Origin: a virus
Lineage: Duplodnaviria > Heunggongvirae > Uroviricota > Caudoviricetes
Virus record (IMG/VR): IMGVR_UViG_2579778634_000010
Span: 1 to 17,162 of that record
Reading direction: 5' to 3' (one strand)
Length of the DNA: 17,162 nucleotides
In this document: positions 950 to 16,589 of the stretch, piece by piece
Layout of the letters: every line of letters begins with the position of its first letter
Position numbering within the stretch: the stretch's first letter is position 1
Notes under the pieces: model-generated
What the model was told of the DNA's origin: nothing
What the model saw: only the letters and a program-made list of their open reading frames with translations
Databases searched by the model: none
Made by a program: the position numbers and the translations under genes

Positions 950-1247
950 ACGTACCCCACCTACCATGACACACGATGAAATGGTAGAAAAAATGTTGTC
1001 TAACCCCGCAGTAAAAGCAGAATACGACGCCATCGCCGATGAATTCGCACTACTTGATGAAATGCTGGCAGCACGAAAAGAAGCTGGCTTAACCCAGGCT
1101 GAAGTTGCTGAACGTATGGGAACAAAAGCGACTGCGATAACCAGAATGGAAAGCAATCTTGCATCAGGTACAAGCGGCCCATCATTTGCCACACTGAAAA
1201 AATTCGCCCGTGCTACAGGGAAAAAACTCCAGATCCGCTTCGTTTAA
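939..1247 (+). CDS. HTH XRE-family antitoxin, HigA-like
   Basis: 102 aa; AAGGAGG before ATG 939; HTH segment LTQAEVAERMGTKATAITRMES; toxin-first gene order typical of HigBA modules. Confidence 0.7.
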   Translation: MTGKRTPPTMTHDEMVEKMLSNPAVKAEYDAIADEFALLDEMLAARKEAGLTQAEVAERMGTKATAITRMESNLASGTSGPSFATLKKFARATGKKLQIRFV

Positions 1248-1301
1248 CTCTCCACTACCGCGCCGTCATTCTGGCGGCGCTTTACCCCAGAGAAATATCA
1301 A

Positions 1302-1547
1302 TCACCGGATTACCACATCCCACTCCGGCTCCTGCCATCTCAAATCCGGTGAATCATTTCTCTCAGGAATAACCATTACGTCCTTTTCCCTTCGCTCCCT
1401 TTCTATCGCCATCACAGCCAATGCTGTAACCATGATGTATTTTTGTTCGTCGGTTCCTGTTTCATAACGACGCATGAGGGTAAACTCGGGGCGATCAGTA
1501 ACCTCAATGATTTCGTTAATTTCTTTAATTTCGCGAGGAATATCCAT
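1302..1547 (-). CDS. Hypothetical small acidic protein (81 aa)
   Basis: ATG at 1547 with AGGAG 9 nt upstream on the - strand; its start overlaps the + strand start of the DUF4145 gene at an NcoI-like CCATGG; perfect 10-bp inverted repeat TCACCGGATT/AATCCGGTGA (1302..1311, 1343..1352) at its 3' end. Confidence 0.3.
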   Translation of the reverse strand: MDIPREIKEINEIIEVTDRPEFTLMRRYETGTDEQKYIMVTALAVMAIERERREKDVMVIPERNDSPDLRWQEPEWDVVIR

Positions 1548-2220
1548 GGGTTTAGTCTCCTTTGATATCACATGCCCGCACTGTTTAAAAGAGCGAGCTG
1601 TTATTGAGGCATTTGCCGAAAAACAAATTGAAAAAACACCTTTTTTTAACGTCGCTTTTGTATGCAGAAGTTGTCATCGAGGAGGTGTTGCTATTGTTGA
1701 AATCCCATCAGACCACTATCACGGTCCCATGGCGGAAAGCCAGAAAAAAGACCTCGATATTCTGATTTCAGGAAATAGCCAGTACCGTTTCCGCAAGATC
1801 TATCCTGTGGTCAAAAAAATTACCGCACCAGAATATACGCCCCCGGTTGCAGACCGTACTTTTGTTGAGGCAAAAGAGGATTTACAGAGGAGGCGGTACG
1901 ACACAGTGGTTATTCTTTGTCGCAGAGTCCTCGATATCTCCACGAAAAAACTGCTCGGCGATGAAGCAGGAAAAGAATCGCTGTCGCAACGTATTCAGAT
2001 GATTTACAAAAAAGGCCTGATCACTGAACAGATGAAGGAATGGGCTCATATTGTACGAATTGATGCCAATAAAGCAGTTCATACAGATGAAGTTTTCACA
2101 CCAATTGAGGCAAGCCAGATCCTGAGTTTTACCGAAATGTTTTTAGTCTACGCCTTCACTCTGCCTGCAATGGTGGAAGCCAGACGTGAACAAAAAAGAT
2201 CAGATTCAGCCTCTATATGA
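1546..2220 (+). CDS. Zinc-ribbon plus DUF4145-like domain protein; candidate anti-phage / exclusion gene
   Basis: 224 aa from ATG 1546 (GAGGA 6 nt upstream); N-terminal CPHC...CRSCH; C-terminal HIVRIDANKAVHTDEVFTPIEASQILSFTEMFLVYAF matches the DUF4145 signature as I remember it; opposite strand to the surrounding operon. Confidence 0.65.
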   Translation: MGLVSFDITCPHCLKERAVIEAFAEKQIEKTPFFNVAFVCRSCHRGGVAIVEIPSDHYHGPMAESQKKDLDILISGNSQYRFRKIYPVVKKITAPEYTPPVADRTFVEAKEDLQRRRYDTVVILCRRVLDISTKKLLGDEAGKESLSQRIQMIYKKGLITEQMKEWAHIVRIDANKAVHTDEVFTPIEASQILSFTEMFLVYAFTLPAMVEARREQKRSDSASI

Positions 2221-2252
2221 ATCACTTTTCTGAACACGTAAGCCCCCGTCAT

Positions 2253-2684
2253 TCACGACGGGGAGAACATCAATCCCTCTGCACTCCCTCGCCAGAATGC
2301 CAGCACACGCTGCATCGTTTCGCTGTTACGGCACTCGCGACAAATTGTGTTGTAGCGTCTGTCGTAGCGCCGTATTTCCCCATCTGGTAATGCCCGGATA
2401 AGGTCTGGATCAACGACAACCGGTTTCTTCGACTTTGCCCTTGAGAGTTTTTTGCGGGCATTTTGCCAGTCCTTACGAGCCTGTTCAGACGGGAATACTC
2501 CGTAACCGGAATTGTAAACATCACCACTGGCGGCCAGCTCCATGCATAAACGACCGACAGACGCATGACTGACACCAATTTCATCCGATAACTGCCGAAT
2601 CGTGCCTCGTCCGTTAAGGCGTACGAATTCCACGATCAGCCCCTTAATTTTTTCCCGCTCTTCTGGTGTAAATGCTCTTGTCAT
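2253..2684 (-). CDS. Hypothetical HTH-containing protein (143 aa)
   Basis: ATG 2684 with GGAGGT upstream; HTH-like segment TIRQLSDEIGVSHASVGRL; last gene of the leftward early operon in this window. Confidence 0.6.
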   Translation of the reverse strand: MTRAFTPEEREKIKGLIVEFVRLNGRGTIRQLSDEIGVSHASVGRLCMELAASGDVYNSGYGVFPSEQARKDWQNARKKLSRAKSKKPVVVDPDLIRALPDGEIRRYDRRYNTICRECRNSETMQRVLAFWRGSAEGLMFSPS

Positions 2685-2699
2685 AAGCACCTCCGGAGA

Positions 2700-3470
2700 T
2701 CACTTTGTTGTCGGTGAATGAACCGGAATATCAGCAATCGAACTGAAAATATCCCGGTGTTTATTCAGCTCCCGCAGCGCGGCGCAGACTCGCTCCCACT
2801 TCTGAACATCACTTTTCGCCCTGCGCAGCGCCAGGTTTGCCCTGCGCAGGGACGGAAAAATCAGCTCATCTGCTTGCGTTTCGGTAAACGATGGCAACGA
2901 CTGCACAATGTCCGCCACAGTTTCTGTTTTAATTTCTTCCTGTGTTGCGGCTTCCCGGACTGGTAACGCAGCACCTGCTGGCTGAGGAAAGGCCTTACCA
3001 TCATTTTCCGTTACCGGCGCGGTTTTCGGATCTGCTGGTAAATTACCCCCCGGCATGCAGTAACGAAATTTACCGTTCTGATTAACGCGTGCCAGCCGCC
3101 CCGTTGCGGTTACCACCGCCAGCGTGGAAGCAACCTTGCGAGTGGTAACTCCGAACTTACCCGCTATTTCTTCACAGGTTTTAGCCCCCTCCTGAGAGAT
3201 AAACTCAATCATCATGTCAGCGCTAACTTTTGGAGCGACCTCTTCGGTCAGCATATCCTGTGTTTCAGATTTTACTGGCCGCTCTTCGGTTACCCGGGAT
3301 TCACCTTCGACAGCCAGAAACCAGGTGTGACCCGTTTTATCAACAACGCCATTTTTTTTGAGTTCCCACAGTTCGTTGAGAACTTCTTCACGGCTGATAT
3401 CAAGCCGCGCCGCCAGTTCAACAGAATTGGCTTTTCCCATCGCTTTCAGTGCATGCAATACGGTTTCCAT
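2700..3470 (-). CDS. Hypothetical winged-helix-like prophage protein (256 aa); possibly DUF1627-type
   Basis: ATG 3470 with GAGGT 9 nt upstream; directly downstream of the DnaC-like gene; family name is from memory only. Confidence 0.65.
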   Translation of the reverse strand: METVLHALKAMGKANSVELAARLDISREEVLNELWELKKNGVVDKTGHTWFLAVEGESRVTEERPVKSETQDMLTEEVAPKVSADMMIEFISQEGAKTCEEIAGKFGVTTRKVASTLAVVTATGRLARVNQNGKFRYCMPGGNLPADPKTAPVTENDGKAFPQPAGAALPVREAATQEEIKTETVADIVQSLPSFTETQADELIFPSLRRANLALRRAKSDVQKWERVCAALRELNKHRDIFSSIADIPVHSPTTK

Positions 3471-3495
3471 CGAAAATTTACCTCGTCAAAAATTC

Positions 3496-4236
3496 TCACA
3501 TACCCTGACGTCCAACGTTTGACCGCCAGCTCTCCCAGTTAAAATTCACCCAACGACCACCATTCATGGTCATACGGTCCATCACTCGCTCCCCCAGAAG
3601 CCTGCTCATCGCACCGTGATTCAGGTTAGTCAGCATCCCGACACTGCGCAGTGATGCCGTTCTGCGGTCGACGATCTGGTTCAGTATGACCTGCTCGTTG
3701 CGCGTATCCCGCTGCATGCCAATTTCATCAAGGACCAGAAGGTCAACTCCACAAAGCTCCTGTAAAAATTTTTCCCCGGACTTGCCGTTGTCGTAGCCGT
3801 CATGCAACACACTCATGACATCGGACACGGTGACGATAATCACGCTTCTCCCCTTCGCCATTAGCCAGTTGCCAATCGCTGCTGCAAGGTGATTTTTCCC
3901 GGTGCCAGGTTTACCGCTGAACACGAAATTCGTGCAGCCGGTATGCAGCTCTGCCGCGATGGATTTTGCCTGACTCAGAGCATGGCGCTGACCGTCGTTC
4001 TGCACCCGGTAGTTCCCGAATGAGCACTTCCTGTGAAGCGGCTGGATGCCCGAACGGTTCAGGATTTTTTCAACCCGCGCCTGATGATTCAGGCGGTTAA
4101 TTTCCTCGCTGCGCTTACGGCCCTCAGCCAGTTGCCATTCCCGCCATTCGTCGGTCGTCCGGAACGGTGCTGCCACGTGCGGTGGTGCCAGACGGCGCAC
4201 CCGTTCAAGAATCCCTCCTGTCGAAATGTTTTTCAT
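3496..4236 (-). CDS. DnaC-like helicase loader (IstB-type AAA+ ATPase)
   Basis: 246 aa; Walker A GKPGTGKNHLA, Walker B LLVLDEIG; start 6 nt after the stop of the O-like gene. Confidence 0.85.
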   Translation of the reverse strand: MKNISTGGILERVRRLAPPHVAAPFRTTDEWREWQLAEGRKRSEEINRLNHQARVEKILNRSGIQPLHRKCSFGNYRVQNDGQRHALSQAKSIAAELHTGCTNFVFSGKPGTGKNHLAAAIGNWLMAKGRSVIIVTVSDVMSVLHDGYDNGKSGEKFLQELCGVDLLVLDEIGMQRDTRNEQVILNQIVDRRTASLRSVGMLTNLNHGAMSRLLGERVMDRMTMNGGRWVNFNWESWRSNVGRQGM

Positions 4237-4242
4237 GGCTGA

Positions 4243-5343
4243 TTACCCCCTGAAACCCGGCGGAATTTCGGTGTCCGGTTCAGAAATGTGATTCACGCAA
4301 CGCAGGCTGACTGCGCCAGCCTTCGGCAGCGACCACGGATTTTCGAAATTCCTGTTCGGGCCAAAAAACGTCGATGCCTGCTGAACAAATTCAGTTCCCG
4401 CTTTCCCGGTAGCCTCCAGGTATCTTGCGTAACGCCTCACGCCATCCAGCACGACATCCGGTGACACCCCTTCGCGTAATCTGGCCCTCCAGGCATTGAA
4501 CGCGGATTTCTTCGGGTTTGACCCTGCCCGATGCGGATATTCACGCCAGACCCGTTCGAACACGTCAGGATAATCAACTCGTCCCGCAGACGGTCCCGGC
4601 ATCGCCCGGGTTAACCCAATCGGCTTCCCGCTCATCGCGGAATCGGCTTCAGGCTGCTGCGGTTGGCGTTGTTGCTCCGGTTCGACGATCAGCACCTGCT
4701 GCACACAACGCCCGGAATCTGCTTCCGGTGTCGTGCCAGCTGGTCCTGGACGTTCAGTCAGAACAGGACAAAAATCCCCCTGCGGGTCCGTGGCGATTTT
4801 TTCGCCATGGACCAGAAGGGTTTTATCCCTTTCCTGTTCTTGTTCTTGTTCCTGTTCCTGTTCCTGTTCCTGTTCTTGGCTTGAAAGGGGCTCTGAAGGG
4901 GCTTCAATTTTCCGACATGATTCACGTCTGACATCCAGGTGGAAATCATCCTTATATCTATCATAAAAGGATGATAAAAAAGGATTTTCCAGCAACGCGG
5001 AATATTCATTTCTTACCCCAGCACAACGGTTATCGCCAGGTTTCAGCGATTCACCAACCTGCCATGCTGCCATTTCATGCACCCATACAACCTCAGAATC
5101 ATGGTCATAGCTGCAAAAACCAGCCTCGCAAGCCATTTGAAGCCCCTTAGAAGCCCCTTCAGGATCAAGTCCGGTTTCGTGAGCAATGTACAAAACAGGC
5201 AGGTAATAAAGGCCCAGCATATTGGAATGAGGCGAGGTCATCATATACAACGCCACTACCATACATTCCGGACCAGACTTCCTTAGTTTTCTCCCTGTTT
5301 CGCCTAACCAGAACTGAGGTGAAATTGTTGCGTAATTACGCAT
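4243..5343 (-). CDS. Replication initiation protein, O-like (YdaU/DUF1376-type) with internal (EQ)n tract
   Basis: 366 aa; position between the cII-like and DnaC-like genes; N-terminus MRNYATISPQFWLGETGRKL; acidic EQEQEQ tract; family assignment from memory. Confidence 0.7.
   Translation of the reverse strand: MRNYATISPQFWLGETGRKLRKSGPECMVVALYMMTSPHSNMLGLYYLPVLYIAHETGLDPEGASKGLQMACEAGFCSYDHDSEVVWVHEMAAWQVGESLKPGDNRCAGVRNEYSALLENPFLSSFYDRYKDDFHLDVRRESCRKIEAPSEPLSSQEQEQEQEQEQEQEQERDKTLLVHGEKIATDPQGDFCPVLTERPGPAGTTPEADSGRCVQQVLIVEPEQQRQPQQPEADSAMSGKPIGLTRAMPGPSAGRVDYPDVFERVWREYPHRAGSNPKKSAFNAWRARLREGVSPDVVLDGVRRYARYLEATGKAGTEFVQQASTFFGPNRNFENPWSLPKAGAVSLRCVNHISEPDTEIPPGFRG
4834..4875. repeat. 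Hexanucleotide tandem repeat (CTGTTC/TTGTTC) x7 encoding (EQ)n on the - strand
   Basis: Seven consecutive 6-bp units read directly; in frame within the O-like CDS. Confidence 0.9.
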
Positions 5344-5483
5344 AGTCCCCTCGCATACAAGATTTACTCCATACCGCAGACGGTCCCGGTATCTCCCGGG
5401 TTAACCCAATCGGCTTCAGGCTGCTGCGGTTGGTGTTGTTGCTGGCGAAATTCTTCCAGATGTGGCAGAATTATTCCCGTGTA

Positions 5484-5560
5484 TTGCTCCATGCCCTGCC
5501 TGAATATCAGATATTCATCAGGATTTGCTCAGAACGTCCGGCCCCAACCGGACGTTTTTT
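5484..5560 (+). ncRNA. oop: OOP-like antisense RNA overlapping the 3' end of the cII-like gene
   Basis: 3' portion CAUCAGGAUUUGCUCAGAACGUCCGGCCCCAACCGGACGUUUUUUAUU closely resembles the lambda oop 3' end as I remember it; terminator stem 5534..5541/5548..5555 plus U-run 5555..5560; antisense to the last ~18 codons of cII. The 5' end is placed by analogy to the 77-nt lambda RNA. Confidence 0.6.
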
Positions 5561-5803
5561 ATTTGCATGAACGTTAATGGCATGCTGGAAAGCCCGGCTG
5601 ATCGGACTGATATCAGATGCCATCTGAAACGCGCATAAAATCGCCGCGATGTATCGCCAGTCGGTACGACTGACCTTCGATTCATGGCAGCCAATCATCT
5701 TCGCCAGTCCCCTTTGCGTCAGAGCTGACAGGTTGATAAGTAAATCCGTTTCAGCGCGATCGATATCGCGCTGTGACAGTTTGCTGTAACTTGTTTGTGA
5801 CAT
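5507..5803 (-). CDS. cII: CII-like transcriptional activator
   Basis: 98 aa; C-terminus HANKKRPVGAGRSEQILMNI resembles lambda CII (TNKKRPAATERSEQIQMEF); AGGAAA 8 nt upstream; position after cro and nutR. Confidence 0.8.
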   Translation of the reverse strand: MSQTSYSKLSQRDIDRAETDLLINLSALTQRGLAKMIGCHESKVSRTDWRYIAAILCAFQMASDISPISRAFQHAINVHANKKRPVGAGRSEQILMNI

Positions 5804-5871
5804 TTGTTAATTTTCCTATATTGATATGGGGTTAAGCGGCAATCCCCAATGGGTTTGCCACTGATGTTTGC

Positions 5872-5912
5872 TCACCCTGTTAGAGGTGAACGACCAGCAA
5901 TGTTAAAGAGCG
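5872..5912 (-). promoter_or_regulatory. nutR candidate: boxA CGCTCTTTAA (5912..5903) plus boxB hairpin (5889..5872)
   Basis: On the - strand GCTCTTTAACATTG is shared with the nutL candidate; it is followed by a 5-bp stem with an 8-nt loop containing CUAA; lies just after the cro stop, as nutR does in lambda. Confidence 0.55.
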
Positions 5913-5919
5913 GTGTTAC

Positions 5920-6144
5920 TTATTCAGCCTGGTTCGGATGAGGAAACAGGTGCGGTAAGTCCGGGCGAATTTCGTAAGCCTTAACCTGACCATTGGTGGC
6001 ATTAACGATAGCGAAAACTTTTTCAGGAGAAACTTTTCCGCCTCGCAACCATTTATGAACAGCGGGCTGTGATACGCCGCAATCAGCTGCAAGTCGTTTT
6101 TGACTGCCAACAATATTCAAGGCTCGCTGAATCACTAAATTCAT
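5920..6144 (-). CDS. cro: Cro-like HTH repressor
   Basis: About 75 aa from ATG 6144 (AGAGGT upstream); HTH QKRLAADCGVSQPAVHKWLRG; divergent from the cI-like gene across the operator region. Confidence 0.75.
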   Translation of the reverse strand: MNLVIQRALNIVGSQKRLAADCGVSQPAVHKWLRGGKVSPEKVFAIVNATNGQVKAYEIRPDLPHLFPHPNQAE

Positions 6145-6170
6145 GAGCATACCTCTACAGCAAATAAAGC

Positions 6171-6254
6171 ATAACCAAAAATAACATGAGTTATACACCA
6201 GGGCAATAACAATTGTTGTTTTACTTTTGATAACCGTGGTTATAGATTACAGGT
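6171..6254. promoter_or_regulatory. OR-like region: three operators (6181..6194, 6206..6219, 6230..6243) with divergent PR/PRM
   Basis: Sites ATAACATGAGTTAT, ATAACAATTGTTGT, ATAACCGTGGTTAT spaced 24-25 bp; extra half-site ATAACC at 6171; TAGATT at 6243..6248 ends 7 nt before the cI ATG (lambda PRM -10 is TAGATT); TATAAC on the - strand overlaps the cro-proximal site. Confidence 0.7.
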
Positions 6255-6962
6255 ATGAAAACATTCGCAGAAAGACTAAATGCCGCCATGAGTTCAGCCG
6301 GGTTGTCACAAGCACAACTTGCAGACATGGTGGGGGTATCACAACCAGCCATACAAAAGATGTCATCTGGTAAAACAACCGGATCACGTAAAATGGTCGA
6401 ATTAGCCAACGCGTTAAGAGTTCGCCCTGAATGGCTAAGCTCTGGTATAGGGTCAATGAGACCACAGAGCGCAGAAGAGCCATCTAATGCTCGGGAATCA
6501 TCTTTAAAAGCTATCGCCTGGGATGATCATCAAAATGATAATGACGAATTTGTTGCGCTCCCCCTTCTAAATATTTCACTTTCAGCTGGCGGAGGAAGTT
6601 GTGCATTGGAGGAGTCCGCAGAATTCTCTCTAGTTTTTAGGCGCTATTACCTGAAAAAAATGGGAGTTCCAGAAAAAGCGGCAAAGTTGGTCAGGGTTGT
6701 TGGGCAAAGCATGGAGCCAACACTCCATGATGGTGATGTGGTGGGGGTAAACACGCAAGATACGAGCATCAGGGATGGTAAAACATATGCAATTTGCCAA
6801 GCTGATTTGTTAAGGGTAAAAACGCTCATAGCCACGCCAACATCGGTAATTATCAGATCGATAAACCGCGAAGAGTATCCTGATGAAGTAATGAACAGAG
6901 AAGAATTCTACAAAAACGTAAGAATCATAGGGCGAGTGTTCTGGTCATCACATAGCTGGTAA
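6255..6962 (+). CDS. cI: CI-like repressor (N-terminal HTH, C-terminal S24/LexA-type autoprotease domain)
   Basis: 235 aa; HTH LSQAQLADMVGVSQPAIQKM; catalytic Ser in GQSMEP and Lys in LLRVKTL; no SD, so probably leaderless as in lambda. Confidence 0.85.
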   Translation: MKTFAERLNAAMSSAGLSQAQLADMVGVSQPAIQKMSSGKTTGSRKMVELANALRVRPEWLSSGIGSMRPQSAEEPSNARESSLKAIAWDDHQNDNDEFVALPLLNISLSAGGGSCALEESAEFSLVFRRYYLKKMGVPEKAAKLVRVVGQSMEPTLHDGDVVGVNTQDTSIRDGKTYAICQADLLRVKTLIATPTSVIIRSINREEYPDEVMNREEFYKNVRIIGRVFWSSHSW

Positions 6963-7086
6963 TCAGACTCCAACTGAACTTTTGCTATAAGAACACTCAC
7001 GAAGAACGGCCTTTTATTGTGCTCAATACCACCGATGGTAAACCATTCGCCAAGTAGCCAATTCATAAAATGCCATTTCTAAATCC

Positions 7087-7112
7087 CCCGGCTCCAGTGC
7101 CGGGTTTTATTT
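7087..7112. terminator. Intrinsic terminator between convergent cI-like gene and the 7115..7336 gene
   Basis: Stem CCCGGC/GCCGGG with 6-nt loop followed by TTTTATTT on the + strand; U-rich on the - strand as well. Confidence 0.6.
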
Positions 7113-7114
7113 AC

Positions 7115-7336
7115 TTAATTACACAGTCGCATATCCTGAAGTAACACATCTATAGCTAACTTCACAGCGAGATCATCCAATTCATCATGGTGAAGCACTC
7201 GGATCATTCCCGCAATAGCATCTGCTGAAATAGCTTCCCCAGTAGCAATAACCTCAAGCAACGACACCCCTAGAATTTCGACTACCCGCTGGTGCAACAC
7301 ACCAAATTCCCCTTCGATTAACATGCAATCACCCAT
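7115..7336 (-). CDS. Hypothetical small protein in the rex-equivalent slot, antisense to cI
   Basis: About 73 aa from ATG 7336 (alternative ATG 7324; the track ORF starts at a TTG at 7381); terminator directly after its stop; no family recognised. Confidence 0.45.
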   Translation of the reverse strand: MGDCMLIEGEFGVLHQRVVEILGVSLLEVIATGEAISADAIAGMIRVLHHDELDDLAVKLAIDVLLQDMRLCN

Positions 7337-7410
7337 AACAATCAGCCTTTCCCCCTTGAAAATATCACGCGGATACCACAAAAAATAAAATATTTTTGTT
7401 ATCAGTCATT

Positions 7411-7472
7411 TATAACGTTTTTCATAAAATGATAAATATAGTTATTGCACAACCAGATAACTTAGGTTATCT
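7411..7472 (+). promoter_or_regulatory. OL-like operators (7431..7444, 7456..7469; weaker 7411..7424) and pL candidate
   Basis: ATAAATATAGTTAT and ATAACTTAGGTTAT share the OR consensus and 25-bp spacing; candidate -35 TTGCAC 7444..7449 and -10 TATCTT 7467..7472. Confidence 0.55.
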
Positions 7473-7518
7473 TCAATTCAACAGCAGGACGCTGGAAGCC
7501 AAACGGAACAGATTGGCC

Positions 7519-7559
7519 GGCTCTTTAACATTGATGGACTCTCAACCTAATCGTTGAGA
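7519..7559 (+). promoter_or_regulatory. nutL candidate: boxA GCTCTTTAA (7520..7528) plus boxB hairpin (7540..7559)
   Basis: GCTCTTTAACATTG shared with nutR; stem TCTCAAC/GTTGAGA with loop CUAAUC; between pL and the N-like gene. Confidence 0.55.
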
Positions 7560-7669
7560 CCAAAATCTAAGTGATTTTGGGGATGACGCGAATTTCAGTT
7601 GCAAGGCCGCGATCGAGAAGAAAAACACCTCGACGCGTCATACACCAAAGCCACTTAAAGGAGACCATC

Positions 7670-7975
7670 ATGGTAACCATAATCTGGAAAGAATCCAAAG
7701 GTACGGCAAAAAGCCGCTATAAAGCTCGCAGGGAAGAACTTATTGCAGAGCGACGCAGTAGTGAAAGACTGACACGGAAGATTGCGCTAAAGATCTCTGG
7801 TTGCGTCGGAGCAGACAAAGCAGTATCACTCGGAAGCCTTCGCTGCAAGAAGGCAGAAGAAGTCGAGAGTAAACAGAACCGTATTTACTACCGCAAACCA
7901 CGCAGTGAAATGGGTGTGACTTGCTCAGGCCGCCAGAAACAACGCGGAAAATCAATTCCGGCTTATTACGATTGA
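7670..7975 (+). CDS. N: N-like transcription antiterminator
   Basis: 102 aa from ATG 7670 (AAGGAG 6 nt upstream); arginine-rich N-terminus KSRYKARREELIAERRSSERLTRK; C-terminus YYRKPRSEMGVTCSGRQKQRGKSIP resembles lambda N (WYSKPGERGITCSGRQKIKGKSIP). Confidence 0.8.
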   Translation: MVTIIWKESKGTAKSRYKARREELIAERRSSERLTRKIALKISGCVGADKAVSLGSLRCKKAEEVESKQNRIYYRKPRSEMGVTCSGRQKQRGKSIPAYYD

Positions 7976-7980
7976 GGTTA

Positions 7981-8265
7981 ATGATGAAGTTCAAATTGAA
8001 CGATGAAGTTAAATGGTCAAGCTCATCAAACGGTGTAACGAAGGTAAAAATCGGGTTTATCGTCGAGGTGATTCCTCCTGGTGTCAACGTAAAAAAATTC
8101 GAACTAGGCCGTCTGCTAGATGCACCTGGCCTTCCGAGGAAAGAAGAGAGCTATATAGTTTGTGTAGGTTCAAGACCCGGATCTCGTGCCAAGCCAAAAT
8201 ATTACTGGCCGCGAGTTAATAACCTGCGTCGATTACAACAAAAAACTTGCGCCCTTAAAACTTGA
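7981..8265 (+). CDS. Hypothetical protein (94 aa)
   Basis: ATG 7981 with GAGG just upstream, 5 nt after the N stop; no family recognised. Confidence 0.55.
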   Translation: MMKFKLNDEVKWSSSSNGVTKVKIGFIVEVIPPGVNVKKFELGRLLDAPGLPRKEESYIVCVGSRPGSRAKPKYYWPRVNNLRRLQQKTCALKT

Positions 8266-8371
8266 AATTCTTCAGGCCGCCGGAAAAATGCAGCTTAAAC
8301 TGGACGAATTCATCGACTGTATGGATGAAATGAATAAAGCAGTTCAGAAGCTTAAAGAGCTGACCGCCTGA
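8186..8371 (+). CDS. Small ORF of uncertain start (61 aa from GTG 8186, or 27 aa from ATG 8288)
   Basis: Overlaps the 3' end of the previous gene in another frame; no convincing SD; helical KAVQKLKEL C-terminus. Confidence 0.25.
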   Translation: MPSQNITGRELITCVDYNKKLAPLKLEILQAAGKMQLKLDEFIDCMDEMNKAVQKLKELTA

Positions 8372-8402
8372 TATTAATAAATTGCAACTACCGGAGTTAA
8401 CT

Positions 8403-8762
8403 ATGAATGAAACAGAACTGAAGCACATTATCGCCCTGCTTCTGGAAGATGCCAGACAGGTTTATCGACTTAGCCCAAATTCCGCAACGCAGGAACGCAT
8501 CCGGATAGCGGAAACAGCACTGAAACAGGACAATGGAAACGGCATATCCAAATTTAGCGCCGCCAGTGAAAATGAAGTAATAGAAATAAACAGCAATATC
8601 AGCGACAGTTGCGTCGCTTACAGCCACCAAATAATTCGTGTAAGTGCAAGAATAATGGAAGTGATGGCAAGTGAGCTTGAAAAGAACAACATCAAGCCCA
8701 CTGATTGTTGTTTAAGAACCGTAATGAACGTTATTTATTACTCGATGTTCCGAAGTCGCTAA
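8403..8762 (+). CDS. Hypothetical protein (119 aa)
   Basis: ATG 8403 with GGAG 6 nt upstream; no family recognised. Confidence 0.6.
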   Translation: MNETELKHIIALLLEDARQVYRLSPNSATQERIRIAETALKQDNGNGISKFSAASENEVIEINSNISDSCVAYSHQIIRVSARIMEVMASELEKNNIKPTDCCLRTVMNVIYYSMFRSR

Positions 8763-8940
8763 CAGCGTCGAGTTTTTCATTAAAAAATGATTCAAATGCA
8801 TCGTAAAATACGGCAATAGCACCGCCCTTATCTACCGCGGCAGGAACTGCCTTTTGAGGTATATCTTTCTCCGTAAATTGTGTGTTGTAAGTATCGACAG
8901 CCAGCCGCATCAGAAACATCACTTTTTCTTCTTGTGTCAT
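8731..8940 (-). CDS. Hypothetical 69-aa protein on the opposite strand inside the pL operon (sieB-equivalent slot)
   Basis: ATG 8940 preceded by AAGGAGAG; 3' end overlaps the 8403..8762 gene by 32 bp; a ~440-bp noncoding region lies upstream. Confidence 0.55.
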   Translation of the reverse strand: MTQEEKVMFLMRLAVDTYNTQFTEKDIPQKAVPAAVDKGGAIAVFYDAFESFFNEKLDAVSDFGTSSNK

Positions 8941-9164
8941 AAATTCACTCTCCTTACGGGGTTTGTAGTTGAGGAGTTCTCCACGGGTGAGGTGGAGATC
9001 GTGCGCCGGACACGGGTGAGTTCCTGCACTCTCAGTTTACTGAACAGACATTACCCTGAAAGCCAGGGTACTACACGAAAGCGCGAGGCGAAGACTCTTT
9101 CCCATAGAAGGATTGTCGTTAGATTTCTTCGACCGTGCGCTTCCGGTTGTGAATAACAACATTG

Positions 9165-9220
9165 CTGTGTGTAACCCTTGGCGGATATCGGTTTGCCGAT
9201 TGCTGATGTCCGCCCTTTTT
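9165..9220 (+). ncRNA. DicF-like small RNA candidate
   Basis: UUGGCGGAUAUCGGUUUGCCGAUUGCUGAUGUCCGCCC followed by UUUUU (stem 9180..9185/9209..9214); resembles the DicF body and terminator as I remember them; sits just upstream of a cell-division-inhibitor-like gene. The 5' end is not defined. Confidence 0.4.
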
Positions 9221-9396
9221 AAAGTGAATTTTGTGATGCGGTGAATGCGGCTATGCGCACGCGGAACAGTTAAACCGACAGGATGTCACGGAAAGTCATC
9301 GTCCCCTGACCCGGCGTTAGTTGTTAACTGGTTAACGTCACCTGGAGGCACCAGGCACCGCATCAACAAAGTTCATTTGTGAAAATGGAGATAATT

Positions 9397-9618
9397 ATGA
9401 TTGCTCATCACTTCGGAACTGATGAAATACCACGTCAGTGCGTGACGCCTGGCGATTATGTTCTTCATGAAGGTCGGACATATATCGCTTCAGCAAACAA
9501 TATTGAAAAGAGAAAACTCTATATTCGTAACTTCACAACAAAAACATGCATTACCGACTGCATGATTAAAGTTTTCATCGGGCGCGATGGCTTACCCGTA
9601 AAAGCAGCGTCGTTGTGA
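9397..9618 (+). CDS. KilR-like small protein (candidate cell-division inhibitor)
   Basis: 73 aa from ATG 9397 (GGAG 6 nt upstream), the length of Rac KilR; position between the accessory genes and the recombination genes; identity from memory, not searched. Confidence 0.5.
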
Positions 9619-9701
9619 CGAGTAATAAAATACACCTTCCATATCTGTAACAGACAAGCCGAAATAAAACCGCATTAATTATCAATCACGGAAAAATCAA
9701 A

Positions 9702-10088
9702 ATGAAAGAACTTGCGCAAAATGAAATATTTTCCGAAACCAGTCCTGATGCAATAAATGAACTCAAAGAAATTGCAGAACGCATCAGTAAAATATGCAAA
9801 GAATACAAAATCGACTTTGTATTTTCTTTTTCAGTGCTTACAGAAGTTGGAAATAACGAATATAAGGACAGTCGTTTTGTTTTATGTGGGTTAAATGGCA
9901 AAACACCAAGCCCATATATTCATGCTGCACGTGAAGTCGTCAGAAGCAACATTGGAGTACAACAAATCCATACACTGGCGCAGGCTCTTGAGTTTGCAAG
10001 AGAAAATTCCGAGTGCGACTGCCCTGAATGCCAGCACGAAAAGGGAAAAACAACTCACAAAACAGCAAACCAGGCAACCTTCCACTGA
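9702..10088 (+). CDS. Hypothetical protein with C-terminal CDCPECQ Cys cluster (128 aa)
   Basis: Complete ORF, weak SD; sits where racC/ydaE lie in Rac-type prophages. Confidence 0.55.
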   Translation: MKELAQNEIFSETSPDAINELKEIAERISKICKEYKIDFVFSFSVLTEVGNNEYKDSRFVLCGLNGKTPSPYIHAAREVVRSNIGVQQIHTLAQALEFARENSECDCPECQHEKGKTTHKTANQATFH

Positions 10089-10095
10089 AATAAAA

Positions 10096-10122
10096 ATCCG
10101 GCAGCGCAGGCTACCGGATTTC
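10096..10122 (+). terminator. Weak hairpin / possible antiterminated terminator between genes
   Basis: Stem ATCCGG/CCGGAT with 12-nt loop followed by TTT; U-tract is short. Confidence 0.25.
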
Positions 10123-10195
10123 TCCCTGCGTCACCGTATTCGGAGAAATCAGACAAAGGGCCGCTAATTCTAATCCAGCCAGAGGTTTAAATACA

Positions 10196-12268
10196 ATGAG
10201 CGCTGATAAACAGACTTTTGCACTACACTGCGAAGCAAAAAACGATAAAGTCAGAAAACGCCTTGGCATCAAAGGCGGTTTTTTCTGGACCGAGGCCAGA
10301 AAACTTTCTGTCGCAGTTTCCCGCTGCATTGCAGCCATGGACGATGCAGGCTACGACGAGGATGATTTCAAAAAACCCGTTCGCGTAAATTTCCCCGTCG
10401 TGAATGACCTTCCACCGGAAGGCGTGTTTGATACTGAATTCTGCAACCGCTATGAAAAAGGCGGTAACGATGGCATCACCATGATGGCTATCCCCTTCGA
10501 TGACAACATCAACGGTGAAGATGCCACAACTGCTGGCGATGACAACGATAACCTGGACGGAACTATTCCGGATGATGTGGAGAAAAGCGAATCCCCGGAC
10601 AGCGACGATGACTGTTCTGAGTGTGAAATTCCCGTCGCCACTCTGAGCCTTACTCATCGCTTCCTTCACCTCTTCTTATTCAGCAAAGATGAAGATGGAA
10701 AATACCGGCATCATGCCACACCAGAACAACGCAATAACGTGATCCGTATGGAGATGGACACAGAGGACAGTTACCTTCAGAGCCTGCTTACTGCTGTGCG
10801 CGCCGCGCATCATGAACTGGATAAACTGACGAACTATCACCTTAGTCGCCTGGCTGAATCTGTAGGGAAAGCATTCCCCCACTCTGCAAATCATCGCATC
10901 AGCCCGGCTGAATTCGACAAGTTCATTTCCACCTGGATGAAAACTGACTACCTTGATCAGGGCCTGCTGACAAAAGAATGGCAGAACGGAAATTATGTTT
11001 CAGGCATTACCCGTACGCCTTCCGGTGCTAACGCTGGCGGCGGAAATATTACCGATCGTGGTGAAGGATTCAAACATGATAAGACATCACTCGCACGAGA
11101 TGTAGCCACCGGCGTTCTGGCCCGTTCAATGGATGTGGATATTTATAACCTGCACCCAGCACACGCAAAACGCGTTGAAGAAATCGTGTCAGAGAATAAG
11201 CCGCCCTTTTCTGTTTTTCGCGACAAATTTATCGCCATGCCCGGTGGGCTGGATTATTCCCGCGCCATTGTGGTGGCTTCCGTGAAAGAAGCACCAATCG
11301 GCATTGAGGCCATCCCGGCACGCGTGACTGAATATCTCAACAAAGTGTTGACCGAAACCGATCACGCTAACCCGGATCCGGAAATCGTGGAAATTGCCTG
11401 CGGTCGCTCATCAGCACCGATGCCGCAGCGCGGAACAGCAGAAGGAAAACATGGCGATGAAGAAAAGCAACAAGCATCGGACACAATGGCTAATGAACAG
11501 GCAGCGCCTGAATCAGTGGAAGAAATTCCAGTTAAACATAATGAGGACACGCAATCACTGGAAAATGTCTCATCTGTAGAAACGAAATACCAGGAACTGA
11601 GGGAGGAACTCAATAAAGCCAGGGAAAACATCCCCCCAAAAAATCCAGTCGATGCCGACAAATTACTGGCTGCCTCGCGTGGAGAATTCGTTGAAGGCAT
11701 CAGTAACCCTGCTGATCCGAAGTGGGTTAAGGGGATCCAGACTCGCGACACTGAGGACCAGAATCAGTCCAAAGTGGAACAAATTGCCCCAGAAGCGGGA
11801 CAAAACAGCCCGGATACGCAACAAAACGGGCCAGAAGAGCAACAGCCAGGGCCAGTAATGCAACAGGAAGTGGAAAAGGTTTGCACCACATGCAGTCAGA
11901 ACGGTGGCGGCCATTGCCCTGACTGTGGTCCAGTAATGGGAGATGAAACTTACGCTGAAACTTTTGGAGAAAATGACGCCGCTGATGGAGAAGACTCAGC
12001 ACAAACTGAGGAGAAGATCATTCAGGAAAACTCTGTTGATGCCGCTCAGGAGGGCGAAACCGTTGTTCAGAACGAGCCAGGCAGTGATACGTCCGGCGAT
12101 GACGCCAATTCTGAGCCAGTAACTCTCGACTGGAAAAGACAGCTCGTGATTGCCGCCGTCTATGGTTTGTGCGCCAACCCCGCATGTATAGCCACAGCGC
12201 CAGCAATCCCTGATATCGCCATCATGATTGCCAACAGGCTTGAAAATTTCGGAGGTGATAAATCATGA
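10196..12268 (+). CDS. Large acidic low-complexity protein (690 aa), possibly related to the RecE N-terminal region, without a nuclease domain
   Basis: Uninterrupted 2073-nt ORF; D/E-rich tracts; CxxC...CxDC near the C-terminus; stop overlaps the gam start (ATGA); the RecE resemblance is from memory. Confidence 0.8.
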
Positions 12269-12561
12269 ATGCCTGGCTTATCCCCGATCGCATTGAAGAG
12301 CAGTCATGGGCACGACACTACCAGCAAATTGCCCGTGAAGAAACTGAAGCTGAGCTGGCAGACGACCTGGAAAAAGGTCTGCCCCAACACCTGTTTGAAT
12401 CGCTATGCATCGATAATCTGCAACGTCACGGGGCCAGCAAAAAAGCTATTTCCCGTGCATTTGATGACGATGTCGATTTTCAGGAACGCATGGCAGAACA
12501 CATCCGCTACATGGCTGAAACCATCGCCCGTCACCAAATTAATATTGATTCAGAGGTATAA
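12265..12561 (+). CDS. gam: Gam, host RecBCD inhibitor (short GamS-length form)
   Basis: 98 aa; [50 protein letters not shown] close to lambda Gam; GGAGGT 8 nt upstream. Confidence 0.9.
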
Positions 12562-12566
12562 AACGG

Positions 12567-13352
12567 ATGAGTACAGCACTCGCAACGCTGGCAGGGAAGC
12601 TGGCTGAACGTGTCGGCATGGATTCTGTCGACCCACAGGAACTAATCACCACTCTTCGCCAGACGGCATTTAAAGGTGATGCCAGCGATGCGCAATTTAT
12701 CGCATTGTTGATCGTCGCCAACCAGTACGGCCTTAATCCCTGGACGAAAGAAATTTACGCCTTCCCTGACAAGCAAAACGGCATCGTTCCGGTGGTTGGC
12801 GTTGATGGCTGGTCCCGCATTATCAATGAAAACCAGCAGTTTGATGGCATGGACTTTGAGCAGGACAATGAGTCCTGTACATGCCGGATTTACCGCAAAG
12901 ATCGCAATCACCCGATCTGCGTTACCGAGTGGATGGATGAATGTCGCCGCGCACCATTCAAAACCCGCGAAGGCAGAGAAATCACCGGACCGTGGCAGTC
13001 GCATCCCAAACGGATGTTACGGCACAAAGCCATGATTCAGTGTGCTCGCCTGGCCTTCGGATTTGCTGGCATCTATGACAAGGATGAAGCCGAGCGTATT
13101 GTCGAAAATACTGCATATACTACAGAACGTCAGCCGGAACGCGACATCACCCCGGTTAACGAAGAAACCATGTCGGAAATTAACGCCCTTCTTACTTCCA
13201 TGGAAAAAACGTGGGATGACGACCTGTTGCCGCTCTGTTCCCAGATTTTTCGCCGCAACATTTACACATCTTCAGAACTAACACAGGCTGAAGCTGTGAA
13301 GGTTCTTGGATTCCTGAAACAGAAAGTCACAGAGCAGAAGGTAGCAGCATGA
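12567..13352 (+). CDS. bet: Bet (Red-beta) single-strand annealing protein
   Basis: 261 aa, near-identical to lambda Bet as remembered ([50 protein letters not shown]...). Confidence 0.95.
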
Positions 13353-14026
13353 CACCGGACATTATCCTGCAACGTACAGGGATCGACGTGAGAGCTGTCG
13401 AACAGGGGGATGATGCGTGGCACAAATTACGGCTCGGCGTCATCACCGCTTCAGAAGTTCACAACGTGATAGCAAAACCCCGCTCAGGAAAGAAATGGCC
13501 TGACATGAAAATGTCCTACTTCCACACCCTGCTGGCTGAGGTTTGCACCGGTGTGGCTCCGGAAGTTAACGCTAAAGCGCTGGCCTGGGGAAAACAGTAC
13601 GAGAACGACGCCAGAGCCCTCTTTGAGTTCACTTCCGGCGTGAATGTTACTGAATCCCCGATCATCTATCGCGACGAAAGTATGCGCACCGCTTGCTCTC
13701 CCGATGGTTTATGCAGTGACGGCAACGGCCTTGAACTGAAATGCCCGTTTACCTCCCGGAATTTCATGAAATTCCGGCTCGGTGGTTTCGAGGCCATAAA
13801 GTCGGCTTACATGGCCCAGGTGCAGTACAGCATGTGGGTGACACGAAAAGATGCCTGGTACTTTGCCAACTATGACCCGCGTATGAAGCGTGAAGGACTG
13901 CATTATGTCGTGGTCGAACGGGATGAAAAATACATGGCTGGTTTTGACGAAATGGTGCCAGAGTTCATCGAAAAAATGGACGAGGCACTGGCTGAAATTG
14001 GTTTTGTATTTGGGGAGCAATGGTGA
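13349..14026 (+). CDS. exo: Exo (Red-alpha) 5'-3' exonuclease
   Basis: 225 aa, near-identical to lambda Exo as remembered ([54 protein letters not shown]...); ATGA overlap with bet. Confidence 0.95.
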
Positions 14027-14077
14027 TAGCCAGTAGCAACGAGGTGCAAATGATATGACAATTAAGGAATACTACCG

Positions 14078-14329
14078 GTGTTCGTTCTAATCCAGCGCGG
14101 GCAGTCTTTCGTCGATGCCAACAACTATCCGGTTGAAGTCTGCAAAATCACTCTGACGCAGGTAATCTTCCGCAGGCTGGATGGGAGAACCAGAGCCGCT
14201 TCAATTAGCGCATTTAATGCAGAATTTGAGCGAATCGATCACAACGAACTACACATGATTAAAGCAGAAATTGAGAAGGAAAAGCATATTGCCAGCCTTC
14301 GAAAAATGCGCCGCATATCAATCAACTGA
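14078..14329 (+). CDS. Hypothetical small ORF (83 aa, GTG start)
   Basis: No SD; only support is the strong intrinsic terminator 2 nt after its stop. Confidence 0.3.
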   Translation: MFVLIQRGQSFVDANNYPVEVCKITLTQVIFRRLDGRTRAASISAFNAEFERIDHNELHMIKAEIEKEKHIASLRKMRRISIN

Positions 14330-14330
14330 C

Positions 14331-14351
14331 AACCGCCTTCGGGCGGTTTTT
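14331..14351 (+). terminator. Intrinsic terminator with UUCG tetraloop upstream of xis
   Basis: AACCGCC-TTCG-GGCGGTT followed by a T-run to 14351. Confidence 0.7.
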
Positions 14352-14363
14352 AATGGCGAAAAT

Positions 14364-14735
14364 ATGGATTCACACAGTATCACCCTCAAAGAGGCCTGTA
14401 AGTTTCTCAAGATATCAAGGCCAACAGCTGTTAACTGGATACGAACGGGCCGACTACAGGCAACCCGAAAAAATTCTTCCGGTAAAAGATCACCTTATCT
14501 CACAACCCGGCAAGCCTGCATTGCAGCACTTCATTCACCGCTGCATACTGTCCAGGTGAGCGCGGGTGATGGCATAACAGAGGAAAGAAAATGTCACTCT
14601 TCCGCAGAGGTGAAATATGGTACGCCTCGTACTCGCTCCCGGGCGGGAAGCGAATTAAGGAGTCTCTTGGCACAAAGGACAAGCGGCAAGCTCAGGAGTT
14701 GCACGACAAGCGAAAAGCAGAACTCTGGCGAGTAG
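14364..14735 (+). CDS. xis: Excisionase (Xis/YdaQ-like)
   Basis: N-terminal [31 protein letters not shown] is a typical excisionase HTH; the ORF stays open 145 nt into int, so the C-terminal extent is uncertain. Confidence 0.6.
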
Positions 14736-15754
14736 ACAGACTGGGGGATATGCCAGATGTCACTTTCGAAGAAGCCTGCCTGAGATGGCTTGAGGAAAAA
14801 GCCGACAAGAAATCCATCGATTCCGATAAATCCAGAATCGCATTCTGGATTGAGCATTTCGAGGGAATAAGGATTAAGGATATATCGGAGGCAATGATCT
14901 ACTCAGTTATCAGCAAAGCGTATAACCGAAAAACAAAGGAGAGATGGAAGTTGCAGGTGGAGGCTGCATTAAGAAAAGGGAAAGAACCACCAGCCTATAT
15001 ACCTAAATCGGTGAGCACGCAAACAAAAGCAACACACCTGGCAATGATCAAGGCTATTCTGCGCGCCGCAGAGCGAGACTGGAAATGGCTTGAAAAAGCA
15101 CCTGTAATCAAAATACCTGCCGTAAAAAACAAACGCGTGAGATGGCTGGAAAAAGAAGAAGCCAGGAGACTCATTGATGCATGTTCTGATCCCCTGAAAT
15201 CTGTAGTTAAATTTGCACTGGCAACTGGCCTGAGGAGATCAAACATTATTAATCTGGAGTGGCAACAAATCGATATGCAGCGACGTGTTGCCTGGGTAAA
15301 CCCTGAAGACAGTAAGTCAAACCGCGCTATTGGGGTCGCACTGAATGACACTGCCTGCAAGGTGTTGCGTGATCAAATAGGCAAACATCACCGCTGGGTG
15401 TTTGTTTATACCACTGCTGCCAGAAGGCCTGACGGGACAATGACACCAAGCATCAGAAAGATGCGCCTGGACTATAACACATCGTGGTTAACAGCATGTC
15501 GTCGGGCAGGAATTGAAAATTTCCGTTTTCATGACCTCCGCCATACCTGGGCCAGTTGGTTAATTCAGTCAGGTGTACCACTGTCAGTACTTCAGGAAAT
15601 GGGCGGCTGGGAGTCTATCGAAATGGTGCGTAGGTACGCACACCTTGCACCTAATCATTTGACAGAGCACGCGAGGAAAATTGACGACATATTGGGTGAC
15701 GATGTCCCAAATTTGTCCCACCCTGAGGTTTTTGAGGATGCAAAGAAAGCATAA
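14591..15754 (+). CDS. int: Tyrosine recombinase / phage integrase (Rac IntR-like)
   Basis: 387 aa; GAGGAAAG upstream; catalytic motifs [25 protein letters not shown]; N-terminus resembles Rac IntR as remembered. Confidence 0.95.
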
Positions 15755-15886
15755 GTAATTGAATTAGAATGAGTTAAGCTCACGCTTTCAAGTGGTGAGC
15801 AACAACTTTAAAGTTGGTTACGTATCGTTTAAAATCAATTAGATAGCCCGTCATTTCTGCGCTCACACGTCCCAACATTGAAAAAC

Positions 15887-15920
15887 ATGCAAAGCTTTGT
15901 AAGCCGATGCAAAGCTTTGT
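15887..15920. repeat. Two 14-bp direct repeats ATGCAAAGCTTTGT (15887..15900, 15907..15920), each with palindrome CAAAGCTTTG
   Basis: Read directly; 20-bp periodicity, 130 bp downstream of int; candidate arm-type or regulator sites. Confidence 0.5.
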
Positions 15921-16009
15921 GTGTCTCACTTTTGTCCCAATACCAATCCGAATCCACCCTTTGTCATCATTGAGAAATGGCAAGGAAGAAAAGGATGTTA
16001 CTGCACGAT

Positions 16010-16039
16010 TTGACAAATCCGCCAGAGCTATCGCATACT
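16010..16039 (+). promoter_or_regulatory. Promoter candidate TTGACA-N18-CATACT upstream of ant cassette 1
   Basis: Consensus -35 TTGACA (16010..16015); matched by TTGACG-N18-TATACT (16520..16549) at the equivalent place in cassette 2. Confidence 0.4.
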
Positions 16040-16065
16040 GATCGCACTGAACAAATAAGCGGTCT

Positions 16066-16093
16066 CCGCACCCGATAGCTTTGCGGCTTTTTT
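16066..16093 (+). terminator. Intrinsic terminator in the leader of ant cassette 1
   Basis: Stem CCGCA/TGCGG followed by CTTTTTT; about 50 nt downstream of the promoter candidate. Confidence 0.6.
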
Positions 16094-16257
16094 ATGCCTG
16101 CAATTTGGCATAGTTACATCCGTACAAAGGTCGGGTGGAGAGGCGTAATACAACACCCGCAAGGGGAATATGCCCAGAGCTTCTTATTTGGCTCAGTTGA
16201 CACCCGACCGCCAGCTACTAACTGGCGGTTATAAACTAAACAAATAAGGAGGTCATC

Positions 16258-16542
16258 ATGACCAGTCAACTCATCCCCGTATTCAACGGTTCTATCTCAA
16301 ACCAAGCAGCCCTTCTATGCAATGCTCGCAATCTACACGCTTTCCTTGGGGTTGGTAAACGCTTTGCATCGTGGATAACAGAACGTATTGCTGAATATGG
16401 TTTCGTTGAAAATCAGGACTATATGATTGCTTCCCAAATTCGGGAAGCAAAAGGTAGAGGCGGTCACAACCGCAAGGAATACCACCTCACCCTCGACACA
16501 GCCAAAGAGCTTGCGATGGTTGACGACTGCGTCCAATACTGA
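16258..16542 (+). CDS. AntA-domain protein (94 aa), truncated paralog of the downstream antirepressor
   Basis: AAGGAGG 6 nt upstream; MTSQLIPVF...GFVENQDY...EYHLTLDTAKELAMV parallels copy 2, then ends after 7 unrelated residues. Confidence 0.7.
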   Translation: MTSQLIPVFNGSISNQAALLCNARNLHAFLGVGKRFASWITERIAEYGFVENQDYMIASQIREAKGRGGHNRKEYHLTLDTAKELAMVDDCVQY

Positions 16543-16549
16543 CTATACT
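16520..16549 (+). promoter_or_regulatory. Promoter candidate TTGACG-N18-TATACT upstream of ant cassette 2
   Basis: Same architecture as 16010..16039; overlaps the stop codon of copy 1. Confidence 0.4.
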
Positions 16550-16589
16550 CCGCGCCGAGGCCTCGAAAACCTCCCAAAAGCGGATTAAA

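Follow-up and report, generated by a model that had tools for sequence, protein, structure and literature searches.

The long spacer that precedes the FtsZ-inhibitor gene kil in IMG/VR record IMGVR_UViG_2579778634_000010 is, as judged by homology, a mosaic of a left module, a KilS/DicF-type small RNA (sRNA) with a processing stem, and a folded kil leader. We analyzed positions 1 to 17,162 of this record (the window, 17,162 nucleotides (nt) in all), where the spacer occupies 456 nt (8941-9396); the corresponding gap between sieB and kilR of the Rac prophage is 441 nt. A first-pass annotation had suggested that this spacer and the opposite-strand open reading frame (ORF) of 69 amino acids (aa) beside it form a replaced exclusion gene with its own regulatory region. 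We instead consider it probable that two distinct entities adjoin here: a real 69-aa cargo gene, and a separate plus-strand KilS/DicF sRNA and kil-leader module at 9070-9396. The parts of the spacer differ in distribution, and among phages the pieces occur separately. The features of the plus-strand module and of the gene behind it are as follows.

9070..9150, plus strand: long imperfect duplex (5' strand 9070-9088, 3' strand 9133-9150, variable apical part), a candidate RNase III processing stem
9129..9220, plus strand: predicted sRNA, KilS orthologue and diverged DicF relative, by homology to Rac KilS (b4833)
9180..9220, plus strand: intrinsic terminator, with a 13-base-pair (bp) stem (9180-9192/9202-9214) and TTTTT at 9216-9220
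9224..9376, plus strand: folded kil leader of 153 nt, identified by covariation, a sub-threshold relative of Rfam STnc100
9224-9243 with 9356-9364 and 9366-9376, plus strand: closing helix of the leader, about 20 bp
9247-9262, plus strand: small hairpin of the leader, with a variable arm next to it
9313-9323/9329-9339, plus strand: GTTAAC hairpin, the second GTTAAC being its 3' strand
9341-9355, plus strand: CCTGG-AGGCA-CCAGG hairpin
9387-9390, plus strand: Shine-Dalgarno (SD) sequence GGAG of kil, outside the closing helix
9397..9618, plus strand: kil (FtsZ inhibitor, 73 aa), from the annotated record

Evidence for the sRNA comes from the Rac prophage of Escherichia coli K-12, in which a 98-nt non-coding RNA, kilS (b4833), is annotated between sieB and kilR. 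KilS was predicted from RIL-seq and confirmed by northern blot; it is Hfq-associated, and the partner recovered for it by RIL-seq is yncL (Bar et al., 2021, PMC8175672). Aligned over the whole 98-nt RNA, window positions 9129-9220 are identical to Rac KilS in 76 of 100 columns, and in nearly all columns of the 5' two-thirds. The two RNAs occupy the same place, within the 5' region of kil and flanked by the opposite-strand cargo gene on one side and kil on the other, and they share the unpaired stretch AAUAAC(A/G)ACAUUGCUGUGUGUA, the terminator base, the T-run, and the leader downstream, whereas the terminator loop in the window is shorter than and different from that of Rac KilS. A transcript of ~100 nt with a transcription start of its own, Hfq binding and the yncL target are known for Rac KilS only. 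The sRNA part folds better than shuffled sequences (z = -3.76), and dicF of the Qin prophage aligns to 9170-9215. On these alignments, 9129-9220 is a KilS orthologue and a diverged relative of DicF. RNAduplex comparisons with the ftsZ initiation region gave energies no different from shuffles for the window sRNA, Rac KilS and DicF, even the authentic DicF. A 6-nt complementarity between the terminator loop (CCGAUU) and ftsZ (AAUCGG) was found by eye, and we regard it as being at chance level.

The long duplex is likely to be the RNase III stem that sets the 5' side of this sRNA. Across 43 sequences, 98.1% of cells were paired, with 33 double-change cells compared to 8.2 in shuffles and 0-2 in slid controls. 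The duplex is present in both Qin-type and Rac-type loci, with compensatory changes such as A-U to G-C and G-C to U-A, and its U·G pairs are allowed on the plus strand only. Experiments on Qin DicF have assigned the 5' end of a 190-nt species to RNase III, the 5' end of a 53-nt species to RNase E, and the 3' end of a 72-nt species to RNase III. By position, the 5' end of the 190-nt species would fall inside the 3' strand of the duplex (9133-9150), and the RNase III-made 3' end of the 72-nt species in the 5' strand of the closing helix of the leader.

The leader was assessed in 32 distinct members of the kil/dicB-leader subfamily, drawn from E. coli phages, Citrobacter, Klebsiella, Scandinavium and Pseudescherichia. 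In this set 97.6% of cells were paired, and 16 pairs carried double changes (4.9 ± 1.7 in shuffles, 1-5 in slid controls); covariation supports the closing helix as well as the internal hairpins, and the STnc100 core UCACCNGGAGGCACCNGGCACC is present. The leader, too, folds better than shuffles (z = -3.79). Several of its G·U pairs are valid on the plus strand only, and the G·U pairs place both the leader and the long duplex on the kil-sense strand. The GTTAAC-TG-GTTAAC motif (9323-9336) and the inverted CCTGG (9341-9345) and CCAGG (9351-9355), previously suggested to be part of a control region of the 69-aa gene, are helices of this kil leader and not operators. Since the SD of kil lies outside the closing helix, the fold does not obviously mask it.

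Taken as a mechanism, these elements would be read on the plus strand within the transcript of the early-left (pL) operon. RNase III would probably cut at the long duplex and free the 5' side of the sRNA. The sRNA, of about 92 nt, would end at the strong intrinsic terminator, which should stop non-antiterminated transcripts before kil and would thereby double as a tL1-like stop of the early-left operon. The closing helix of the leader is a likely second RNase III site, and a cut there would separate the sRNA from the kil mRNA.

Cores of the leader type extend well beyond this locus. The core UCACCNGGAGGCACCNGGCAC is widespread in Enterobacterales (at least 120 loci, with L141, L176, L189 and L216 as examples), versions of it with GGUGAAUCCCCC are true Rfam STnc100 members, and phage P7 carries the same type of leader before terB (L136:2001-2116). 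The core also occurs on plasmids, at times as two copies about 530-630 nt apart (about 2.5 kb in L141). It is found before very different genes (kil, dicB, terB, lpxR-like) or with a terminator close behind. STnc100-type unpaired segments (GGUGAAU, UCACC, GGCACC) vary less than the helices, an unusual pattern for an sRNA that acts by base pairing alone. The conserved RNA structures also contain two short ORFs, one of 41 aa (9037-9162, minus strand) and one of 45 aa (9245-9382, plus strand), and some phage records annotate "hypothetical proteins" over homologous stretches. The length variation in the variable arms argues that neither is coding, and the small ORFs that some annotators call inside the spacer should be ignored.

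Having placed most of the spacer on the plus strand, we turn to the gene on the other strand.

8731..8940, minus strand: 69-aa protein gene, PHROG 2605, full-length family match; the protein starts MTQEEKVMFLMRLAV
8948..8955, minus strand: SD sequence AAGGAGAG of the 69-aa gene, 7 nt before the ATG

This ORF is, on its family conservation, a real protein gene of the small family PHROG 2605 (function unknown), which it matches with E = 9.1e-45 over residues 1-69 and profile positions 1-69 of 69; it is also annotated by PGAP. Homologues from E. coli prophages share 58% and 47% identity with it, and the one from Edwardsiella phage EPP-1 shares 47%. An exhaustive HMMER profile search of 1.84 billion representatives recovered only 15 clusters at 50% identity, all of them small proteins of about 60 aa and of the same type. 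Members share an invariant-like helix, MTxEEKVMFLMRLAV(D/E)T, followed by a second helix, I..IY.KFE.FLDKKL. Compared with the EPP-1 homologue, 9 of the first 20 codons are identical, 8 differ synonymously and 3 non-synonymously; because synonymous changes outnumber the others in this way, the ORF is, by codon comparison, under purifying selection at the protein level. Family members always run opposite to the early-left operon and are located either ahead of dicB or kil or immediately after the repressor gene. In E. coli the ORF was found in 74 of 5,426 complete genomes, including O104:H4 strains, with one copy each; one phage record leaves it unannotated.

The product (7.7 kDa, isoelectric point (pI) 4.5) is predicted to be an acidic, soluble, two-helix protein. 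Solubility is suggested by the pI and by the hydropathy profile, in which no 19-residue window was hydrophobic enough for a membrane helix (maximum Kyte-Doolittle value 0.99). Two AlphaFold2 models gave a helical hairpin at low confidence (predicted local distance difference test, pLDDT, 64-66). Nothing was found for the protein in Pfam, NCBIfam, PADLOC, a PDB profile search or a Foldseek PDB search. These results agree with the initial description of a soluble protein dissimilar to SieB. The exclusion role suggested for the protein is a guess from position. Should lysogens express it, it would be a candidate small effector.

The position itself is equivalent to the sieB slot of Rac, on the opposite strand just before the kil spacer, as had been proposed. 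Unrelated opposite-strand ORFs occur there in other prophages, so the idea of a replaceable slot also holds: the slot contains sieB in Rac, an unrelated 77-aa opposite-strand ORF in O157:H7, and an unrelated 73-aa ORF in phage phi367. When 102 unique loci were surveyed mechanically, several more unrelated slot families were suggested amid many spurious antisense frames. The slot is thus a cargo site into which recombination has put several unrelated small opposite-strand genes, sieB among them in Rac.

Between the cargo slot and the sRNA lies the left part of the spacer, whose features are the following.

8944..9043, strand of action open: left module, comprising the ribosome-binding site (RBS) region and hairpins H1 and H2, identified by homology to loci with unrelated ORFs
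8979-8997, either strand: hairpin H1, CTCCAC-GGGTGAG-GTGGAG
9005-9027, either strand: hairpin H2, GCCGGA...TCCTGC
9052..9070, strand open: 7-bp hairpin, TACCCTG-AAAGC-CAGGGTA

The left module is 77-85% identical to loci with unrelated opposite-strand ORFs and to the ORF-less Qin. Its RBS region also stands before the unrelated ORFs of the O157 and phi367 loci, and the homology extends about 6 codons into three mutually unrelated ORFs. At the wider range of 8941-9128, matches at about 77% identity were found in 3,540 genomes. Two copies of CACGGGTGAG (8982-8991 and 9011-9020, and nowhere else in the window) make up the H1 and H2 loops with adjoining stem bases, and both are conserved in homologous loci; their number is not significant by itself, as 31 of 200 shuffles contained at least two matches at up to 1 mismatch. 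The 9052-9070 hairpin is kept in some homologues (CCCTG/CAGGG; CTCTG/CAGAG in O157) and is degenerate in K-12 Qin. In phi367 neither an sRNA nor kil follows the left module, which is accompanied there solely by an unrelated opposite-strand ORF; this argues that the module belongs to the cargo genes. It may therefore be an expression module of opposite-strand cargo ORFs, judging from this distribution. The leftmost ~100 nt of the spacer would then supply the 69-aa gene with expression signals that do not depend on pL, and with expression of its own the protein would qualify as a lysogen-expressed accessory ("moron") protein.

Some complementarity was also observed within this module. In a minus-strand mRNA, the H1 and H2 loops (8985-8991 and 9014-9020) would read (C)UCACCC, which is complementary to GGGUGA just after the SD in O157, L129 and phi367 (L006, L129 and L263 compared); the window counterpart of GGGUGA is GAGUGA. 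The SD AAGGAGAG could pair, too, with a conserved CUCCU, whose complement on the plus strand is GAGGAG (8971-8976). This loop-SD complementarity hints at translational control and may be coincidence. A small peptide encoded by the left module was considered and ruled out, as indels in homologues break the frames and the would-be start codon at the loop varies.

Several observations weigh against our combined interpretation. The Rfam DicF model (RF00039) aligns to 9166-9215 over its full length (model positions 1-52) with 29.2 bits (E = 2e-4), below the gathering threshold of 48, compared to 76.7 bits for K-12 DicF. Similarly, STnc100 (RF02076) aligns to the leader over its full length (model positions 1-206) with 31 bits (E = 4.5e-5), below its gathering threshold of 47, and true members score 68-77 bits. 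The long duplex shows 5 covarying pairs against 3.5 in shuffles, with 55 of 500 shuffles reaching 5, and its double-change pairs are correlated with lineage. An extended -10 element (TGn), TGTTAAATT, lies upstream of KilS in Rac, whereas its counterparts in the window (CGTTAGATT) and in Qin (CGTTAAATT) are without the TG, making the route of sRNA production uncertain; because the window is without this element, we infer that the sRNA is here matured mainly from pL transcripts, as shown for DicF. On the cargo side, no minus-strand sigma-70 promoter was found in a scan of 8941-9250, and the best hand-found candidate (-10 TAAACT at 9034-9039, -35 CTTTCA at 9057-9062) matches at only 7 of 12 positions. 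Finally, Qin keeps the left module and has no opposite-strand ORF, so the module may serve the plus-strand transcript.

This last point introduces the best-surviving alternative, in which the left module acts on the plus-strand pL transcript as a 3' stabilizer, processing or protein-binding element and is not the promoter or 5' untranslated region of the 69-aa gene. We regard it as a serious possibility, though one somewhat below even. Qin-type loci without an ORF, which are more frequent than any other type in a set of 40 unique left halves, have kept the module nearly intact, H1 and H2 are able to form on either strand, and the promoter search is in keeping with it. However, the phi367 arrangement, with an opposite-strand ORF and neither sRNA nor kil, is hard to reconcile with a plus-strand role, and so is the extent of the shared block, which takes in the minus-strand RBS as well as the opening ~6 codons and continues into three ORFs that are unrelated. 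Since Qin keeps the module without an ORF and no convincing minus-strand promoter was found, the left module may act on either strand within the combined reading.

A second alternative concerns the neighbor of the 69-aa gene, which overlaps it by 32 nt (8731-8762).

8403..8762, plus strand: accessory pL-operon gene, 119 aa, PHROG 2982, function unknown

The C-terminal domain of the 119-aa protein (SELEKNxIKPTxxxLRxVM) is often found together with the 69-aa family, and the homologues in L133, L129 and Edwardsiella phage EPP-1 overlap the 69-aa-family gene convergently, as here. The two could form a functional cassette, in which the small protein binds or neutralizes its partner, or the two cooperate in abortive infection or exclusion. 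From E. coli prophages to the Edwardsiella phage, the overlap of the convergent 3' ends persists, as does the partner's C-terminal domain, at 47% and 23% identity, and the O157 locus, which is without this domain, has a different small ORF. Yet in some diverged 69-aa-family loci the partner is absent or uncalled, physical overlap by itself would be expected to produce co-inheritance, and neither protein matches a toxin, antitoxin or defense family. We therefore consider such a cassette unlikely. Similarly doubtful, in our view, is a broader set of proposals: that the left module is a portable expression cassette; that the 69-aa protein, by itself or in combination with its partner's C-terminal domain, is a new lysogen-expressed exclusion or host-modulating protein; and, separately, that the STnc100-like fold before kil, dicB and terB is a cis-acting processing or regulatory RNA and not only a base-pairing sRNA.

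The proposal with which the locus was first described, namely that a replacement superinfection-exclusion gene has the entire 440-456-nt spacer, with promoter, operators and hairpins, as its private regulatory region, fares considerably worse. All the features that the first-pass annotation listed are real and lie where it placed them: the ORF, its RBS, the overlap, the CACGGGTGAG pair, the 7-bp hairpin, the GTTAAC motif and the CCTGG/CCAGG inverted repeat. The 69-aa gene does sit in the sieB position, and unrelated cargo ORFs do share the leftmost ~100 nt; this part, with both copies of CACGGGTGAG, travels with cargo ORFs even where sRNA and kil are missing. The remaining three quarters or so (9070-9396), however, is a plus-strand module common to Rac and Qin, both of which are without the 69-aa gene, and contains an annotated sRNA of the KilS/DicF type. 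Its helices covary with G·U pairs only on the kil-sense strand, its leader motif also precedes terB in P7, its core is found across Enterobacterales, and the 69-aa protein matches no defense model in PADLOC. For 9070-9396 the private-region explanation is largely refuted, and we consider it very improbable. The spacer is structured, as was claimed, in its sRNA and leader parts; the two CACGGGTGAG copies do not by themselves exceed chance. The weakest explanation, that the 69-aa ORF is a chance, untranslated antisense frame, may appeal to its shortness, to the lack of a known domain, to the low-confidence structure model and to the phage record that leaves it unannotated, but is scarcely credible given the full-length PHROG match, the N-terminal motif shared by 15 clusters, the excess of synonymous changes relative to a homologue at 47% identity, the strong and correctly spaced SD, and the PGAP annotation.

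The combined reading, of a cargo gene beside a separate sRNA and leader module, also suits the genomic context. The 69-aa gene and the spacer sit between the accessory genes and kil of the early-left (pL) region of a lambdoid E. coli prophage. The annotated record has a lambdoid layout, with a cI-like repressor at 6255-6962, cro and cII on the other strand, and an early-left operon on the plus strand that contains, in order, an N-like antiterminator (7670-7975), the accessory genes, kil, recE, gam, bet, exo and int. Prophages of E. coli NCCP15648, FORC_069 and others are 100% identical to window positions 8300-9700, O104:H4 is 98.4% identical, and at least some part of this query was matched in 4,620 genomes. 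A probable pL/nutL region was noted at 7400-7600, upstream of the N-like gene. Its sequence is AT-rich and promoter-like, a boxA-like GGCTCTTTAA occurs near 7521, and TCTCAAC-CTAATC-GTTGAGA and CCAAAATC-TAAGT-GATTTTGG form two hairpins. A nut-site function of H1 and H2 was ruled out, as the boxA-like sequence and hairpins at about 7521-7600 look unlike them and CACGGGTGAG does not recur in the window.

Elsewhere in the window, positions 354-541 (minus strand) gave gathering-level Rfam matches to C4 antisense RNA (354-438, 74 bits) and isrK (464-541, 75 bits), a pair that represents a P1/P7-type immI-like antisense control module at the other end of the prophage, adjoining toxin-antitoxin genes. 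Just past the integrase gene, two gathering-level matches to Rfam sRNA-Xcc1 (plus strand, 16129-16217 and 16666-16751, 69 and 73 bits) lie 537 nt apart; in other strains the matching DNA is annotated on the opposite strand as antA/AntB antirepressor fragments. The right end of the window is unlike that of NCCP15648, where ynfG follows int.

The spacer is thus largely known biology. Both here and in thousands of E. coli prophages, the long "noncoding spacer" before kil houses a KilS/DicF-type sRNA together with its processing stems and a folded leader, and should not be taken for a promoter or operator region. It is modular as well, with an exchangeable left module, sRNA variant, leader, and kil or dicB, and with an opposite-strand cargo hot spot adjoining.

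Comparison with known systems places each part. SieB of Rac, lambda and P22 occupies the same slot in the same orientation as the 69-aa gene, on the opposite strand with its start codon toward the kil spacer. The two proteins have no sequence similarity (no BLASTP match), and SieB, at 162 aa against 69 aa here, has membrane-spanning stretches, whereas the 69-aa protein has no hydrophobic segment. The leader resembles STnc100/PasD (RF02076; bioRxiv 10.64898/2026.05.13.724894) in its closing helix, GGUGAAU, internal hairpin, variable arm and UCACCNGGAGGCACCNGGCACC, and differs in the 5' hairpin, which is GCGGCUAUGCGC in the window and CCCCC...GGGGG in STnc100. Some true STnc100 members have an intrinsic terminator close behind, as free-standing sRNAs would; the window element has none close behind it and forms the 5' leader of kil, 20 nt before the ATG. 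Relative to Qin, the window is without the ~130-nt Qin-specific insert and the 5' seed of DicF, and kil follows in place of dicB. The flank upstream of the sRNA is nevertheless of the Qin type and not of the Rac type, and Qin and the window have homologous sequence in the left half of the spacer as well as in the RNase III-site duplex. In Qin dicBF, as in the window, a cell-division-inhibitor gene follows closely after the sRNA within a pL-type operon, and the GGCGG...CCGCC terminator of Qin DicF leads into the same AAAGTGAATTTTGTGATG... leader.

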